64,000 nt of DNA from Ostreococcus lucimarinus (Eukaryota), in assembly GCA_000092065.1 (NCBI GenBank), contig CP000588.1; one strand, written 5' to 3'. Below the pieces are notes generated by a model that saw nothing but the letters and a program-made list of their open reading frames with translations, ran no database searches and was not told the origin of the DNA. The number at the start of each line of letters is the position of its first letter. Within the stretch, counting starts at the first letter, position 1. A program made the translations under genes and the position numbers. Shown piece after piece: positions 23,445 through 29,670 of this stretch.

Positions 23445-23670
23445 TCACGCGCGACGCGCGCGATCGTCCGCGCGCGCGTCCGCGCGCGTCGTCCGCGCGC
23501 CCTCGCGCGCGCGTTCGACGCGTCGAATTTTGCTTCGCCCGCGTCGCCGTCGCGACGCGCGTCGTCGCCGTCGCCGCGATGTGCCGCGGCGTCGTTCGCG
23601 CGTCGCGACGGCGCGGGCGTTACGGCGCGCGCGTCGGGAGACGAGCGGACGCGACAGCGCGCCGCGCGCG

Positions 23671-23857
23671 ATGCCCGCGCGCGCGCCGACGCGCGACGGG
23701 AAATTCGCGCGATCGCGCGGCGCGTACACCGCGCGCCGGCGCGCGGCGACGCTCGAGCGACAGCGCGCGGCGAAGCGCGACGCGCTCGCCGTCGCGCGCG
23801 CCGTCGCGCGCGTCGCGACGCGACGCGACGGCGCGACGCGCGACGCGCGCGGTGCGC

Positions 23858-23897
<40 letters not shown>

Positions 23898-25083
23898 CGA
23901 TGGCCGCGGCGCGACGGACGCGGCGCGCGACGACGACGCGAGAGACGCGAGAGACGACGAAGACGCGAGAGACGACGCGAGAGACGACGCGGACGTCGTC
24001 GCGCAGCCGGAGTGGATGTGGGACGACGCGCCGGATGATTTTCGCGAGCGGTGGTACGCGCGCGCGCGACCGCGCGGGACGCGGTGCGTGGTGGTGGCGA
24101 CGCGGGGACGAACGACGGCGCGGAGCGCGCGGGACGGGACGACGCTGCGGACGTTTCAATCGGGATTGCCGGGAGGGAGCGCGCGGACGAGTCGAGGGCG
24201 GAGCGGGGAGTGCTTTTGCATACTCGATTGCGTGTTCGCGGAGGATGAGCGGGCGAGGAATGAGACGGGCGGGCGAGGGAAGGAGGCGGCGACGGCGAAC
24301 GCGCGAGGCGCGTATCACGTGTTGGACGTCATGGCTTGGAACGGGGCGGCGATGTACGATTGCGACGCGGAGTTTCGGTTTTTCTGGGCGCACACGCGAT
24401 TGACGGAGGAGTGCGACGCGTGTGAGGCGCCGAACGCGGCGCTGGGGAGAGACTTCGCGTTCGTCCCGACGCCGTGGTACGAGTGCGACGTCGACGGCGT
24501 CTCGAGAGCGTACGCGGGAGATATCGGTACCGAGATCGATGGGTTGCTGTTTTACCACAAAGAGGCGGCGTACGAAAATGGCGCGACGCCGCTCGTGTTG
24601 GCGTGGCGCGATGCGAAGACGTCGGCGTTTTTCACGCGCGACGAAGGCGCGGCGACGGTGCTCTCGCGCGCGGGCGTCGTCCTCCCGGGAGACCCCACCG
24701 CGGCGCAAATCATCACCTTGACGAAGTCGAGCGACGGAAGATTCTTCGTCACCGGTGACGATGAGCCAATGGTCATCGCCGCCGTGGATGCGGTACCGCG
24801 GGCGTCGGAGAAAGTCGCCGCGCCCGCGACGCTCGAGCCGGGCCGCTCGGGCCGTTTTCTCGTCGGTCCGTCGGGATTCGACGTCGACGTCGAAACCGCG
24901 CACGTGCGAAGCGCTGACTTGCACTATCTCGGTCCGAAACCACCGAAGCGACGCGGTGTCGATCGCGCGGACGCGCTTTCGAAGATCCTCTTCAACGCTC
25001 GAGCGCGAACGGCGCCGCTCGGCATCGACGCTCTGTTGTCCGCCGCCGCCGCGGACGCCCCCATGACCGATCACGCGCGTTGA
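23671..25083 (+). CDS. SNUPN: Snurportin-1 (m3G-cap snRNP import adaptor) homolog
   Basis: CVVVATRGRTTARSARDGTTLRTFQSGLPGG, ILDC...YHVLDVMAWNGAAMYDCDAEFRFFWAHTRLTEE and VDGLLFYHKEAAYENGATPLVLAW match SNUPN blocks IVVVCPVGKRALIVASRG...SLLPGG, ILDC...[33 protein letters not shown] and VDGLLFYHKQTHY..STPLVGW. The N-terminus is R-rich (IBB-like) with poly-Asp. The track ORF starts at 23530 with a non-ATG codon; the first ATG is at 23671. Confidence 0.75.
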
Positions 25084-25253
25084 ACACGTCGACGATCCGA
25101 CACAGTCGTACTAGTTTTAGCTTGTCATCGCTAGCGTTCATCTTAGGGAAACGTCGCGCTCGCGTCGCCTTCTGCAAAACTCGTCGCGCTCGCGTCCCGC
25201 TCGCGCTCCCGCGAACGCCTCTCCCGCGCGCGTCGCCGCACTTCGCCGCGCCC

Positions 25254-27317
25254 ATGGGTTCGTCCACGCCGAAGAAGGAGAAGAAAGAAAAGAAGGAGAA
25301 GAAAGAGAAGCGCTCGAGCGAGGACAAATCGCCGGGCGGCGGCGATGAGCGGTCGAAAAAGCAAAAAGTGCAGGACGATGGCGGCGGCGGCGAACCCACG
25401 CGCGTGCGCGTCGTTGGACTCACGAAGACCGCGAACGCGGACGGCGTGGGCGCGTTTCTGGGTTTGGACGCCGCGAGCGTCGTGGTCGGGATGTGGGGAA
25501 CGCACGGGAAAGGCCCGAAGCCACCGGGAGGGCAAGCGTTCGCGACGACGGCGTCCCGAAGCGCGGCGGAGAAGCTCGTCGAGGCGTTCGATGGAAAAAC
25601 GCTGGATGGAGTCGAGTTGAAGGTGATAGTGGATGATGGAGACGTCGCGGTGCACTCGAATGGGGGAGTGACGCCCGGGAAGGACGCGAAGCCGACGATA
25701 AAGACCATGGAGGTGCCGCGACCGCCGTTGTTCGGCGGCGGCGGCGGCGCGGCGGCGAATGTATCCGTGTCAAACGCCGATACCGCGCCTTCGATGTCGC
25801 CGCATGATGTACGAGCGGACGATTGGTCGTGTGGGGCGTGTGGGTGTAGTAACTTTGCACGGCGAACGTCGTGCTTTAGGTGTGCGGCGCCGAAGAGCGC
25901 GACGACGAGCGGGGCGCCGGCGACTGCGGTGAACACCGCGGCGGCGCGCGCGTCAGCGCAAGGAAACGCACAAGATGGGTATGAGGTGTTTTTGAAGTAT
26001 TTGCCGCACAGCGCGAACGAAGAGGAGGTGACCAAGTATTTCGCCGACTGCGGCGCCATGGTCAGTCAGGCGCGTCTGTTGCGCGACCCGCAGTCGGGTC
26101 AACCCAAAGGAGCGGGATTCATCACGTTCGTAGACGAAGCGGGCAGAAACGAGGCGTTGAAGCGCGACGGTGCGCGATTCGGCGGTCGCAACGTGTCCGT
26201 GACGGTGGCGAAAAAGAGCACGTTCGGCGTGCGCGCCACGGATCAGGCGTACGGAACGCACACGCCGGCGATGTTAGCGGAAACCATCGCGGCTCTCGTC
26301 GCCCCTGATCGCTCGGGCGTGTACGTGGACGGAACTTTCGGACGTGGAGGTCACACGCGCGGAATTCTCGCCGCGCTTTCCGCCGAGGGTCGCTTGCACG
26401 CGTTCGACATGGATCCAGAGGCGATCAAGGTGGGCAAGGAGCTCGAAAGAGAAGACTCCAGGTTTAAGATTCACCACGCCCCGTTCGGATGCATGGCGGA
26501 CGTTTTGAGACCGCTCGGCGTGAAACCGTCTGGAGTATTCTTAGATTTAGGGATTTCTTCGCCCCAATTCGACGACTCGTCGCGAGGGTTCCGACCCGAG
26601 CAAGACGGTCCGCTCGACTTGCGCTTTGACGTCGAGCGCGGCGTCCCCGCGAGCGAGTATCTCAGACTCGTTTCGCGCGAAGAACTTCGACGGGTGATTC
26701 ACGAATACGGTGAGACCACTGATCCAATCGCCGCCCGTCGAATCACGGACGCCATCGTGCTCGCGCGTGAAAACGGTTCGCTCCCGAGCACGACGAAGGA
26801 ATTCGCCGCCCTCGTCGCCAAGGCCAAAGGCAAAGAATACCAGATGATGCATCCCGCCAAGCTCACGTTCCAAGCTTTACGCATCGCGCTGAACCAAGAG
26901 TTTGACGAGATGCGACGCGGTATGCACGCCGCATTCGATATCATGCCCGAACACGGACGTTTGGGCATCCTCACCTGGAAGCACAGCGAGTGCGCCATCG
27001 TCGTCGACTTTTTCCGCGACTACGAAGTCATCCGCGACGACTTCCCCCTCTACGAGTGGGCGCTCAAGAACCACGCCGATAAGTGCTCGAAGAAGCTTGA
27101 ACGCAAGTGGGGCATGCACATGGACGACGCTCAGCGCCCGAGCGAGCAAGAGATGCGTCAAAACAGCCGTTCGCGTTCCGCGACGCTTCACGTCCTCCGC
27201 AAGCGCGAAGCCGTGCGCATCGCCGACTTGGAGCGCCTCTCGTACAAGCTCAAGGGTTGGGGCAAGATCCCAGACGCGAAACCGGCGCCACCGGTGACGT
27301 TCAACTACAAGATATAG
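25254..27317 (+). CDS. Fusion protein: K/E-rich N-terminus, RRM-like domain, RanBP2-type zinc finger, RRM, and an RsmH/MraW-type rRNA N4-cytosine methyltransferase domain
   Basis: The RanBP2 zinc finger is DDWSCGACGCSNFARRTSCFRCAAP. The RRM has RNP2 VFLKYLP and RNP1 KGAGFITF. The RsmH motifs are YVDGTFGRGGHTRGIL, LGISSPQFDDSSRGF, and a C-terminal cap domain. The first ATG (MGSSTPKKEKKEKKEK) is at 25254. An upstream in-frame S/T/R-rich stretch starting at a TTG at 25080 could be part of a presequence. Confidence 0.75.
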   Translation: MGSSTPKKEKKEKKEKKEKRSSEDKSPGGGDERSKKQKVQDDGGGGEPTRVRVVGLTKTANADGVGAFLGLDAASVVVGMWGTHGKGPKPPGGQAFATTASRSAAEKLVEAFDGKTLDGVELKVIVDDGDVAVHSNGGVTPGKDAKPTIKTMEVPRPPLFGGGGGAAANVSVSNADTAPSMSPHDVRADDWSCGACGCSNFARRTSCFRCAAPKSATTSGAPATAVNTAAARASAQGNAQDGYEVFLKYLPHSANEEEVTKYFADCGAMVSQARLLRDPQSGQPKGAGFITFVDEAGRNEALKRDGARFGGRNVSVTVAKKSTFGVRATDQAYGTHTPAMLAETIAALVAPDRSGVYVDGTFGRGGHTRGILAALSAEGRLHAFDMDPEAIKVGKELEREDSRFKIHHAPFGCMADVLRPLGVKPSGVFLDLGISSPQFDDSSRGFRPEQDGPLDLRFDVERGVPASEYLRLVSREELRRVIHEYGETTDPIAARRITDAIVLARENGSLPSTTKEFAALVAKAKGKEYQMMHPAKLTFQALRIALNQEFDEMRRGMHAAFDIMPEHGRLGILTWKHSECAIVVDFFRDYEVIRDDFPLYEWALKNHADKCSKKLERKWGMHMDDAQRPSEQEMRQNSRSRSATLHVLRKREAVRIADLERLSYKLKGWGKIPDAKPAPPVTFNYKI

Positions 27318-27414: not shown

Positions 27415-27786
27415 ATGCGCGTCGGCGTCCCGTCGACGCGCGCGCCGTCGACGCGCCCATCGCCATCGTTCGCGCCGTCCGCGTCGTCGTCGTCCGCGCG
27501 CGCGTCGCGCCCCGCGCGCGCGAACACCGTCTCGACACTCTTCGCAACCGGCGACGACGCGCGCGGCGACGCGTCGCGTCGCGCCGATCCCGCGCCCGAG
27601 ACGCGGTGTCCGGTGTGCCGCGGCACGGGCTGGAAGCCGTGCGGGCAGTGCGAGGGCACGGGGATCAACCCGAGCGACGCGTTCGGGGGCAAGTTTAAAG
27701 CCGGCGACGCGTGTTGGCTGTGCGAGGGCAAAAACGGCGCGCGGACGATGTGCGGGAACTGCGTCGACCTCACGGACACGTTTTGA
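27415..27786 (+). CDS. Small DnaJ-type zinc-finger protein (BSD2/PSA2-like), probably plastid-targeted
   Basis: An Ala/Ser/Arg-rich presequence is followed by CxxCxGxG repeats: CPVCRGTGWKPCGQCEGTG ... CWLCEGKNGARTMCGNC. Confidence 0.5.
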   Translation: MRVGVPSTRAPSTRPSPSFAPSASSSSARASRPARANTVSTLFATGDDARGDASRRADPAPETRCPVCRGTGWKPCGQCEGTGINPSDAFGGKFKAGDACWLCEGKNGARTMCGNCVDLTDTF

Positions 27787-27858: not shown

Positions 27859-28587
27859 CTACTCGTCTCTCTCTCTCGCGCGCGCGCGGCGTCGACCCGC
27901 CTCGCGACCGTTGACGTACTCGGCGGTTTCGACGAGCTCGCGCAGAAACGCGTCGACGCCCGACGCCCCGTCGTCGTTCTCCAACACCTCCAGCATGAAC
28001 TCCCGCTGACGCCGCGTGACGAACGCGATGCACTTCTCGGGACATCGCTCGCTCGCGCACCACTCGGCGTACGCCAGCGCCGACGTCTCGTCCGCGCTCG
28101 CGTCCCCGAAGTCATCCCGCTCGATCCATCGCGCCTTCCCGGTCGTCGCGTCCGCGACGAACGACCTCGGCGCCGCCTCGACGCAGCTCGACGCGCACGC
28201 CGCCGCGCCACGACACCGCGTCGCCGCGACGAATCCGTGTCGCGCGCCGTCGAACGTCCTTGCGAGCGTCTTCGCCGCGAACGCGTCGCCGTCGCCGTCG
28301 CTCGCGCTCGCGAGCGTCCCGTCGCGCGCTGACGCCATCGCGCGCTCGTACGCCGCGCGCACCGCGAGCGCGCGCGCGGTCGACCCTCGCGCGGCGTCCG
28401 GGTGCGCGTCGCGCATCGTCGCGCGGTACGCGTCGCGCACGTCTCGCTCGGTGAGCGTCGCGGCGTCGCGCGCGTCGAGCCCGAGGCGTCGCAGCGCCGA
28501 CGCCGCGTCGTCCGAGGACGACGCCGCGACGCGCGACGCGCGGCGCGGCGGCGGAAAACGCGTCGGCGCGAATCCGAGCGCGCGCAT
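27859..28587 (-). CDS. J-domain protein with C-terminal Cys-rich ferredoxin-like domain (CDJ3-5/DjC-Fd-like)
   Basis: The J-domain LGLDARDAATLTERDVRDAYRATMRDAHPDAARG...AAYERAM has the HPD tripeptide. The C-terminus has CRGAAACASSC ... ERCPEKC. The longer 532-aa ORF in the track (27837..29435) is antisense to the SpoU gene and is rejected. Confidence 0.5.
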   Translation of the reverse strand: MRALGFAPTRFPPPRRASRVAASSSDDAASALRRLGLDARDAATLTERDVRDAYRATMRDAHPDAARGSTARALAVRAAYERAMASARDGTLASASDGDGDAFAAKTLARTFDGARHGFVAATRCRGAAACASSCVEAAPRSFVADATTGKARWIERDDFGDASADETSALAYAEWCASERCPEKCIAFVTRRQREFMLEVLENDDGASGVDAFLRELVETAEYVNGREAGRRRARARERDE

Positions 28588-28658: not shown

Positions 28659-29670
28659 CATGCGCGGCGCGTCGCGTCGCGCCGCCGCGGTCGTCGCGCG
28701 CGCGCCGGGGCGCGCGGCGTCCCAGTCGCGCGCGCGTCGAATCCGCGAATTGCACTTTTCGGGCGACGAAAACGCCGCGCACCGCGCGCCGCGCGCGCGA
28801 ACGGCGCGCGCGAGCGCGCGAGACGGTCGACGCGCGCACGCCGCCGATGCGGACGGCGTCGAGCGCGTGTCGAGCGCGGAGAACGCGACGGTGAAGCACT
28901 TTGTAAAGTTGTGCAAGAGCAAGGCGTACCGGGACGAGCGCGGGACGGTGGTGCTGTCGTCGAGCGTGCTCATGCGCGAGTGCTTCGGGCGCGCGGGAGA
29001 GGGGCGCGAAGCGAAAACGCTGTTCGTCGCGGATTGGGCGGAGGCGCCGGCGGGAATTCGGGCGAAGAGGGTGATTCGGGCGCCGGCGAGCGTGCTGAAA
29101 AAGTGCGCGGGGGTGAACAACGCGGACGGGTTGGACGCCGTGGGGGAGTTCGCGTCGCCGGTGATCATGAACGCGCGCGAGTTCGTCGATGGTGCGAAAC
29201 AGAGGGACGTCGTGCGCGTGCTCGCGGTGGAGGGGGTGCAAGATCCCGGGAATTTGGGAACGCTCACGCGCACGGCGGTGGCGTTCGGTTGGGACACCGT
29301 GGCTTTACTTCCGGGAACGTGCGATCCGTTCAACGACAAGGCGATGCGCGCGGCGCGTGGGGCGACGTTTCGAGTCGATTTCGTCGCCTTCGATTCGTTC
29401 GACGATCTCGCGAGCGCTGGAAGAGAATTGAACATGGAGTTGTACGCCGCCGAGCCGAGCGCGAAAGAAGACGTCGACCCCGAACGGGCAAAGGCTGTGG
29501 CGAAGGCGTGTCTGGTGCTCGGTACCGAAGGTCAAGGATTGAGCGACGATGCCTTGCGCGCGTGCAAGCCGGTGGCGATTCCGATGTCGGGGGAGATGGA
29601 AAGCTTAAACGTCGGCATCGCGGGTGGCGTTCTGATGTATTTGATGCAGGCTACTACGAAGACCCGATGA
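28659..29670 (+). CDS. SpoU/TrmH-family RNA 2'-O-ribose methyltransferase (RlmB-like), probably organellar
   Basis: The SPOUT motifs are VEGVQDPGNLGTLTRTAVAFG, LVLGTEGQGLS and IPMSGEMESLNVGIAGGVLMY. The first ATG is at 28659; the track ORF extends upstream from a non-ATG start. Confidence 0.8.

Follow-up and report, generated by a model that had tools for sequence, protein, structure and literature searches.

The question raised by this stretch of DNA, a 64,000-nucleotide window of contig CP000588.1 of Ostreococcus lucimarinus (the window being the whole stretch that was analysed), is whether a ribosomal RNA (rRNA) methyltransferase of the bacterial RsmH/MraW type is really joined to eukaryotic RNA-binding modules on one polypeptide, and, if so, where in the cell and on which RNA such a protein would act. 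An earlier reading, made from the letters of the sequence and referred to here as the sequence-only reading, had proposed that the open reading frame (ORF) at 25254-27317 encodes a Lys/Glu-repeat tract, a degenerate RNA recognition motif (RRM), a RanBP2-type zinc finger and a canonical RRM, followed by the catalytic and cap domains of RsmH, an enzyme that makes N4-methylcytidine (m4C). The analysis described here finds all of these parts on the product of a single gene, places the protein in an uncharacterised eukaryotic RRM-RsmH subfamily of which it represents the most elaborately decorated form, and suggests, with the balance about even, that it is catalytically active, works as an RNA m4C methyltransferase probably in the nucleo-cytoplasmic compartment, and is held to its substrate by the RNA-binding modules.

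A single intronless gene

From the first in-frame ATG to the stop codon, the frame on the plus strand at 25254-27317 runs uninterrupted through 687 amino acids (aa), without any intron, and the GC content of its third codon positions (GC3) stays between 0.62 and 0.84 across all segments. Gene calling on metagenome contigs gives the identical 687-aa protein as one gene, in contigs from 208 blocks of the assembly collection, and the neighbours in those contigs are constant and all eukaryotic (bestrophin, snurportin, BSD2, a SpoU methylase, DsbD_TM, an AP mu subunit and a P450). In orthologues that range from 98% down to about 50% identity, the frame is kept through linkers that differ in both length and sequence. 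A relative in the MMETSP transcriptomes, P0164 (906 aa), matches over aa 180-685 with 62% identity, the PPVTFxY C-terminus being part of the match, and it carries an RRM-like domain, a weak zinc-finger match, an RRM, the RsmH core and an extra KH domain, all on one mRNA. The fusion of RNA-binding modules with RsmH on one polypeptide is therefore real, with very little room for doubt, and it is encoded by an intronless nuclear gene of a mamiellophyte green alga. Table 1 collects the features of the locus.

Table 1. Features of the RsmH-fusion locus and of its immediate surroundings (positions in the window; aa numbers refer to the 687-aa product)
Feature	Position	Strand	Basis
Intergenic or 5' untranslated stretch, noncoding (earlier read as a possible presequence)	25084..25253	+	No in-frame ATG; directly 3' of the snurportin stop
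Complete coding sequence, multidomain RsmH-family protein	25254..27317	+	Continuous ORF; identical protein in metagenome contigs; GC3
Disordered Lys/Glu-rich tail, aa 1-45	25254..25388	+	pLDDT <50; KKEK x4, KKQK (aa 35-38)
N-terminal RRM-fold (quasi-RRM-like) domain, aa 46-128, degenerate RNP motifs	25389..25637	+	AlphaFold2 fold, Foldseek
Gly/Ala/Pro-rich disordered linker, aa 129-186	25638..25811	+	pLDDT ~30; length and sequence variable among orthologues, always in frame
RanBP2-type zinc finger, aa 187-215, W-x-C-x2-C-x3-N-x6-C-x2-C, with NFARRTSC	25812..25898	+	Pfam PF00641, PDB matches, pLDDT ~83
Canonical RRM, aa 243-318, RNP2 VFLKYL, RNP1 KGAGFITF	25980..26207	+	Pfam RRM_1; pLDDT 87-96
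RsmH/MraW S-adenosylmethionine (SAM)-dependent methyltransferase and helical insert domain, aa 335-655	26256..27218	+	Pfam, TIGR00006, superposition on 3tka
Family-specific C-terminal helix (aa 656-667, R..DLE..AY....W) and mamiellophyte-specific PPVTFxY tail	27219..27314	+	Helix pLDDT >90
BSD2-type cysteine-rich domain gene (Pfam BSD2_CRD, 1.4e-15)	27415-27786	+	Ser/Thr/Arg/Ala-rich, transit-peptide-like N-terminus

The frame is also open 5' of position 25254, and the sequence-only reading saw there a possible Ser/Thr/Arg-rich presequence. This candidate was rejected, because the open stretch has no ATG (the sole candidate start being a TTG at 25080), because the 3' end of the upstream snurportin gene (23671-25083, plus strand, with its stop at 25081-25083) extends into it, and because the extensions of those orthologue ORFs that reach upstream of the MGSSTPK start are mutually unrelated in sequence. 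Bacterial contamination or recent horizontal transfer was likewise rejected, since the gene sits amid eukaryotic nuclear genes. A scan of 185,579 prokaryotic genomes for peptide patterns of the catalytic half returned only an RsmH of Rhodococcus at 32% identity, which is weak evidence, the scan being limited to the patterns.

The methyltransferase core

The C-terminal half of the protein matches the Pfam family Methyltransf_5/MraW (PF01795) over aa 335-650 with an E value of 2e-65 and 221.7 bits, against a cut-off of 27, and covers positions 3-308 of the 309 in the profile, while the NCBIfam model of the RsmH equivalog, TIGR00006, scores 208.6 bits against a cut-off of 154.3. Over aa 335-655 the AlphaFold2 model has the two-domain RsmH fold, a Rossmann domain with an inserted helical domain, with a predicted local distance difference test score (pLDDT) above 90, and it superposes on the RsmH of E. 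coli (PDB 3tka) with a TM score of 0.90 and a root-mean-square deviation of 2.7 Å, and on 1wg8 with a TM score of 0.90. The call of catalytic and cap domains is thus upheld by profile and by fold, and the motifs YVDGTFGRGGH, LGISSPQFDDSSRGF and KKEKKEKKEKKEK, together with KGAGFITF of the canonical RRM, are all found in the translation of the ORF.

The catalytic site can be compared with that of the mitochondrial homologue METTL15, in which SAM is contacted by T96, H102, D119, D169, Q176 and E298 (PMC10828496). These residues align with T361, H367, D385, D431, Q438 and E552 of the algal protein, of which the first five are invariant in an alignment of 93 homologues and E552 is the majority residue. 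Further invariant positions in the same set are G363, R364, G366, G433-Q438, R444, G445, D455 and R457, and the motifs DLGISSPQ and RGF...D.R.D are invariant as well. Judged by this conservation, the RsmH core is very probably catalytically competent. Beyond the core comes the family-specific C-terminal segment, which E. coli RsmH lacks; its residues E660 and W669 hardly vary within the family, and the PPVTFxY tail that follows is common to the transcript P0164.

The protein shows every testable defining feature of the RsmH family, among them the signature motifs (TFGxGGH, an acidic residue after beta2, DLGxSSxQ, RGF...DGPLDxR and N-x-R-x-RS). The resemblance to E. coli RsmH, the methyltransferase of m4C1402 in 16S rRNA, extends over the core and its helical insert (39% identity over 325 aa). 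The differences lie in what surrounds the core: the bacterial enzyme stands alone, with about 313 aa and a gene in the mraZ-rsmH-ftsL cluster, whereas 334 aa of eukaryotic RNA-binding modules lie ahead of the algal core and the family-specific helix comes after it, and the algal gene is nuclear and flanked by those for snurportin and BSD2.

The N-terminal RNA-binding modules

The Lys/Glu-repeat tract of the sequence-only reading corresponds to aa 1-45, which contain 13 Lys and 10 Asp or Glu residues, with K[KR]x[KR] motifs at aa 7, 10, 13, 16 and 35. It is proposed that this tail acts as a nuclear or nucleolar localisation signal, or else as a non-specific RNA-binding tail. In the AlphaFold2 model it is disordered, as are the linkers at aa 130-188, 216-239 and 322-334.

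The degenerate RRM required a different approach, since a Pfam scan of the first 189 aa is blank, even at E<=5, and the question was decided by structure prediction. AlphaFold2 (93 homologues) folds aa 46-128 as beta-alpha-beta-beta-alpha-beta with pLDDT 85-94, and the same segment modelled in isolation reaches a pLDDT of 81. When the isolated model is compared with the PDB by Foldseek, the top matches are all RRMs or quasi-RRMs (Fox1, ESRP1 qRRM2, Glorund qRRM and RBM12), with TM scores of 0.65-0.75. The RRM-like assignment therefore stands on the predicted fold, where the domain profiles are silent. The Pfam entry PF28441, which some homologues carry as a precomputed annotation, probably represents the same domain. 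The module is kept in mamiellophyte orthologues and is recognisable in P0027, P0055, P0059 and P0065; a segment resembling it can also be read by eye at the C-terminus of P0061.

The zinc finger matches Zn_ribbon_RanBP (PF00641) over aa 187-215 with 28.7 bits, a marginal score given a gathering score of 27. Comparison with the PDB is more telling, with matches to RBM10 (1.3e-8), RBM5 (2e-6) and ZNF265/ZRANB2 (2e-5), as well as FUS and TAF15, and the sequence itself, WSCGACGCSNFARRTSCFRC, fits the pattern W-x-C-x(2,4)-C-x3-N-x6-C-x2-C with an aromatic-A-R-R segment for RNA contact. By these features the finger belongs to the RNA-binding RanBP2 subclass of RBM5, RBM10, ZRANB2 and FUS, whose fingers bind GGU-type single-stranded RNA (ssRNA) in splicing factors. 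It is conserved in orthologues of the Micromonas and Bathycoccus types. In the NCBI model of Bathycoccus prasinos (P0018, 650 aa) the core of the finger is missing, DWT|ARRGKYGE standing in place of the DWTCEKCGGENFARRETCYKCAAGKYGE of the metagenomic ORFs P0009 and P0011, and the last strand of the RRM-like domain is missing too. Both gaps are probably mis-predicted introns that mask the full architecture in the public annotation.

The canonical RRM, like the finger, is confirmed by the Pfam scan (RRM_1 at aa 245-314, E=2.9e-13), and its residues F246, L250, G286, T291 and F292 are nearly invariant among the 93 members. Taken together, the modules recall the RRM1-ZnF1-RRM2 cassette of RBM5 and RBM10, in which an RRM, a RanBP2 zinc finger (ZnF) and another RRM follow in the same order. 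The finger-RRM pair is collinear with that of RBM5 in 9ze0 (query 187-296 against 181-285), and the NFARRTSC of ZNF265/ZRANB2 is identical in the algal finger. The likeness has limits, however. RBM5 and RBM10 also contain an OCRE domain, a second zinc finger and a G-patch, none of which is detected by Pfam in the algal protein; moreover, the first algal RRM is degenerate and escapes Pfam, and the cassette is joined to an enzyme instead of splicing-factor domains.

The RRM-RsmH family

At E<=1e-5, a search with the full-length protein yielded 179 proteins, and of the best 120 almost every one combines RRM_1 with Methyltransf_5. The named members come from Bathycoccus prasinos, Prymnesium parvum (annotated 'RRM domain-containing protein'), Symbiodinium microadriaticum and S. 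pilosum ('rsmH'), Tisochrysis lutea and Chlamydomonas sp. UWO 241; a second search, started from the UWO 241 member, added Chlamydomonas eustigma ('RRM domain-containing protein'). One cluster of the family holds a EukProt entry attributed to the ochrophyte Pseudopedinella elastica. The MMETSP and EukProt transcriptomes supply many of the members, as complete ORFs, and identity over the RRM-RsmH portion amounts to 50-60% between green algae, haptophytes and dinoflagellates.

In a neighbour-joining tree of 85 RsmH domains with 100 bootstraps, the family is monophyletic in all 100. Next to it stands a set of long multidomain RsmH proteins, rich in dinoflagellate sequences, with bacterial-sized RsmH outside both and METTL15 as a distant outgroup. 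The algal protein agrees with the definition of the family in its canonical RRM directly N-terminal of the core, in its R..DLE..AY....W helix and in its place within the fully supported clade.

The canonical RRM and the C-terminal helix occur family-wide, while it is in the Micromonas and Bathycoccus clades and in a few others that the zinc finger and the N-terminal RRM-like domain occur. The sequence-only reading had suggested searching other green algae for the same N-terminal extension, and the search does recover the extension in these clades, although not across the family. On this distribution, particular lineages have added the finger and the N-terminal module to an RRM-RsmH core that is ancient compared with these additions of the mamiellophytes, the fusion being real and not a one-off. 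The claim of a novel fusion has thus to be divided: searches of the literature on RsmH/MraW with RRMs, on the phylogeny of CMAL (the chloroplast homologue) and on m4C in 18S rRNA or in algae found no publication on RRM-RsmH proteins, but the fusion is not unique, as RRM-RsmH entries are widespread in public databases. No orthologue from C. reinhardtii, Volvox or land plants was found from the UWO 241 member, in a search that scored word-sharing candidates and leaves their absence unproven, and this may explain why the family has not been studied. No land-plant protein appears among the best 120 matches of either search, in which gamma-proteobacterial RsmH follows directly after the family.

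Several members carry further domains. In Symbiodinium and its relatives (P0046, P0024, P0035 and P0040) a TrmY-like SPOUT methyltransferase is fused, together with a weak CCHC-knuckle match; this SPOUT domain matches MJ1640/AF_1056, of the TrmY family of pseudouridine-N1 methyltransferases. A pseudouridine synthase of the RluA/RsuA type is fused in P0061, a KH domain is added in P0065 and P0164, and P0027 has three extra RRMs. The SPOUT and pseudouridine synthase fusions tie m4C to the chemistry of pseudouridine and m1-pseudouridine and suggest a physically coupled RNA-modification module. The member from UWO 241, an Antarctic strain, stands apart in another respect: this protein (P0115) is 57% identical to the dictyochophyte-assigned Pseudopedinella cluster (P0118/P0171) and only 41% identical to P0323 of C. 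eustigma, a pattern that may reflect a horizontal transfer between algae or else a contaminated data set.

The neighbouring dinoflagellate proteins also embed an RsmH core in long multidomain proteins of eukaryotic type, such as WW-RsmH, WW-RsmH-SH3 and the Polarella protein A0A813HSP7 (UniProt 'RanBP2-type domain-containing protein'). Their cores are just 34-47% identical, however, their partner domains differ, and no RRM was detected in those that were scanned. Mid-length RsmH representatives with N-terminal extensions, among which organelle-targeted paralogues were sought, bear no informative names except that of Polarella.

Distance from the organellar enzymes

RNA m4C in eukaryotes is currently attributed to organellar ribosomes, through METTL15 in mitochondria and CMAL in chloroplasts, and the sequence-only reading had framed the algal protein in these terms, as an organellar descendant of bacterial RsmH. 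The comparisons speak against that framing. The catalytic domain scores 188.6 bits against E. coli RsmH and 104-112 bits against METTL15, with identities of 39% and about 33%, METTL15 lies outside the cluster formed by the family and the bacterial enzymes, and the termini of the algal protein look nuclear. By sequence comparison it is nearer to bacterial RsmH and is not an orthologue of METTL15.

METTL15, the methyltransferase of m4C839 in mitochondrial 12S rRNA, does share with the algal protein the condition of a eukaryotic RsmH homologue, the fold (TM score of about 0.8) and the SAM contacts. It differs in that it carries a mitochondrial presequence, which the algal protein does not have, and the algal protein in turn has RNA-binding domains of its own; METTL15, which is mitochondrial, docks via the RBFA C-terminal helix (PMC10828496). 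CMAL, the chloroplast MraW-like protein of Arabidopsis, is an RsmH homologue of the plant lineage that likewise acts on the rRNA of the small subunit (SSU), at m4C1352 of 16S rRNA (PMC7102989). It is plastid-targeted, whereas the algal N-terminus is unlike a transit peptide, and among the best 120 matches no land-plant protein falls within the family or ahead of gamma-proteobacterial RsmH.

Cellular location

The evidence on location comes from composition and motifs. A control is provided within the genome by the gene of the chloroplast chaperone BSD2, 100 bp downstream, whose first 45 aa contain no acidic residue, no Lys and 16 Ser or Thr, and which was used as an internal standard for plastid targeting. 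Acidic residues are depleted in the transit peptides and presequences of algae, and by a composition heuristic the first 45 aa of the RsmH fusion have the features of neither a mitochondrial presequence nor a chloroplast transit peptide. In the family at large, only 8-20 aa precede the RRM in most of the 93 aligned members, too few for a transit peptide, let alone for the bipartite signals of haptophytes and dinoflagellates. Nearly every one of the 93 has a Lys/Arg-rich tail (KKKK or KRKR runs), which is C-terminal in most lineages and N-terminal in the mamiellophytes.

Repeats of the KKE/D kind characterise snoRNP proteins of the nucleolus, such as Nop56, Nop58 and Cbf5, and RanBP2 fingers of the RBM5/RBM10/ZRANB2 type, like WW domains, are typical of nuclear RNA-processing proteins; the WW and SH3 domains of the paralogues in the neighbouring clade were counted in the same direction. 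These heuristics lead to the suggestion, held with somewhat more confidence than doubt, that the protein is non-organellar.

Substrate and alternative explanations

The mechanism proposed for the active, probably nucleo-cytoplasmic enzyme would be as follows. The catalytic half would bind SAM and methylate cytidine at N4 in the manner of bacterial RsmH, while the canonical RRM and the family-specific C-terminal helix would provide a substrate docking that stand-alone bacterial RsmH does not have. In the mamiellophytes, the extra RRM-fold domain and the zinc finger, of an ssRNA-binding type, would add affinity or specificity, and the Lys/Glu tail would serve as the nuclear or nucleolar targeting signal, the site of action being most likely nucleo-cytoplasmic and not the plastid or the mitochondrion. 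The suggestion of the sequence-only reading that the extra RNA-binding modules recruit the substrate fits this scheme and is a reasonable one.

As for the substrate, a stable and invariant RNA is favoured, judging by the extreme conservation of the core and by the fusions to TrmY-like SPOUT and pseudouridine synthase domains in other members. RsmH and METTL15 both act on a decoding-centre cytidine in helix 44 (h44) of the SSU rRNA, and the most economical guess would therefore be the equivalent of E. coli C1402 in 18S rRNA, in pre-40S particles; it is offered tentatively, as an argument by analogy. The wider proposal, that these algae place m4C, probably as N4,2'-O-dimethylcytidine (m4Cm), on the h44 cytidine of cytosolic 18S rRNA, or on some other nuclear-encoded RNA, by means of a nuclear or nucleolar RRM-RsmH, is possible but doubtful.

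Some observations weigh against this picture. Every named taxon with the family is an alga or a member of a plastid-bearing group, which a plastid-linked function would fit too; RRM proteins occur in chloroplast ribosomes, and one of them, cS22, is among the PDB matches of the canonical RRM; the equivalent of the FHSLEDR motif has diverged to WKHSECA, which is conserved as such within the family; and the h44 cytidine is only 2'-O-methylcytidine (Cm) in the non-bacterial ribosomes of the comparative table, those of P. abyssi, yeast and human, m4Cm1402 being marked as bacteria-specific (PMC7005279 Table 4), so that m4C in 18S rRNA would be without precedent. The first two of these points favour an imported organellar enzyme, functionally equivalent to CMAL and METTL15, that would methylate the C1402-equivalent of an organellar SSU rRNA and in which the RRMs would replace accessory factors such as RBFA. 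The strong match to the RsmH equivalog with its complete catalytic site points the same way, as does the fact that the known eukaryotic RsmH homologues found are all organellar (METTL15, mt-SAF14 of T. brucei and CMAL). Such an enzyme is nevertheless rather unlikely, as the Lys/Glu-rich N-terminus with its 10 acidic residues in 45 is unlike the BSD2 transit peptide, as neither an upstream ATG nor a conserved extension exists, as most members begin so close to the RRM and nearly all have tails resembling nuclear localisation signals, and as the family is not close to METTL15 and no plant CMAL ranks ahead of gamma-proteobacterial RsmH among the best 120 matches. A nuclear enzyme might alternatively write m4C on non-ribosomal RNA (pre-mRNA, snRNA or tRNA), the RBM5/RBM10-like cassette selecting single-stranded motifs for a retargeted RsmH. 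The subclass of the zinc finger and the RBM5-like order of the cassette would suit this, and so would the related paralogues with WW domains and the TrmY-like partner in one branch of the family, TrmY being a tRNA enzyme in archaea. However, a single RRM is all that is found family-wide, and the zinc finger and the extra RRM occur in some lineages, so that neither can be essential to the core function; the RsmH core is 50-60% identical across distant algal lineages, which suits an invariant substrate such as rRNA; and nothing relevant was found in the literature on m4C in these algae or in eukaryotic cytosolic rRNA. This alternative is accordingly judged unlikely.

Two further explanations concern the protein itself. 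The RsmH fold could persist as an RNA chaperone or placeholder in an inactive, catalytically dispensable factor of ribosome assembly, a role for which there are parallels in mt-SAF14, a MraW-like assembly factor of T. brucei, and in METTL15, whose catalysis is reported to be dispensable for mitoribosome biogenesis (PMC11197891), and with which the divergence of the FHSLEDR equivalent would agree. The conservation or invariance of the SAM contacts, of DLGISSPQ and of RGF...DGPLD in 93 sequences is, however, expected only under selection for catalysis, and the match to mt-SAF14 is far weaker, at 41 bits, so that an inactive factor is very improbable. The last explanation is an artefact of annotation, by which a gene for an RNA-binding protein and an adjacent RsmH gene would lie in frame by chance in a GC-rich genome. 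Although the region does contain many long, overlapping and spurious ORFs on both strands, this can hardly be credited, and the two-gene model was rejected: the metagenome contigs have one-gene calls, the frame is kept through variable linkers in more than 20 orthologues (20-98% identity), the RRM-RsmH junction is family-wide and includes complete MMETSP and EukProt transcriptome ORFs, P0164 bears the whole cassette with RsmH on one transcript, GC3 is uniform across segments, and no ATG-initiated ORF restricted to RsmH is conserved.

If the nucleo-cytoplasmic reading is true, RRM-RsmH would be the first non-organellar writer of m4C in eukaryotic RNA, and, if 18S rRNA is its target, the cytosolic ribosomes of much of the marine phytoplankton would bear a modification thought to be absent from the cytosolic ribosomes of eukaryotes. 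A strongly conserved RsmH subfamily that combines RNA-binding domains of eukaryotic type with basic tails of the nuclear kind, and that lacks transit peptides, points, in ecologically dominant phytoplankton, to an unrecognised m4C pathway outside organelles. The family also illustrates how a bacterial rRNA enzyme, which normally recognises the assembled subunit, can gain modular RNA-binding domains.

Neighbouring genes and other observations

Scans of the entire window with Rfam (at the gathering threshold) and for tRNA genes found no Rfam family and no tRNA gene. At 23500-24100, in the 5' part of the snurportin gene, GC content reaches 0.76-0.82 in 300-bp windows and a poly-Asp run is encoded; both strands of the same segment contain several overlapping ORFs of more than 270 aa, nearly all of which must be spurious, and in this genome the length of an ORF is thus by itself no proof that it is coding.

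A gene for a SpoU-family (SPOUT) RNA 2'-O-methyltransferase with an Arg/Ala-rich N-terminus follows the RsmH fusion at a distance of about 1.3 kb downstream, at 28660-29670 on the plus strand. In bacteria, m4Cm1402 requires an N4- and a 2'-O-methyltransferase; the closeness of the two genes is probably a coincidence in a compact eukaryotic genome. On the minus strand, at 27859-28587, a 242-aa ORF is called as a gene in every metagenome copy and has no Pfam match. By eye it shows a transit-peptide-like N-terminus and an HPD motif like that of J-domains (MRDAHPD), after which comes a segment rich in Cys (CASSCVEAAP...ERCPEKCIAF); it may encode a plastid protein of a DnaJ-plus-ferredoxin-like type.

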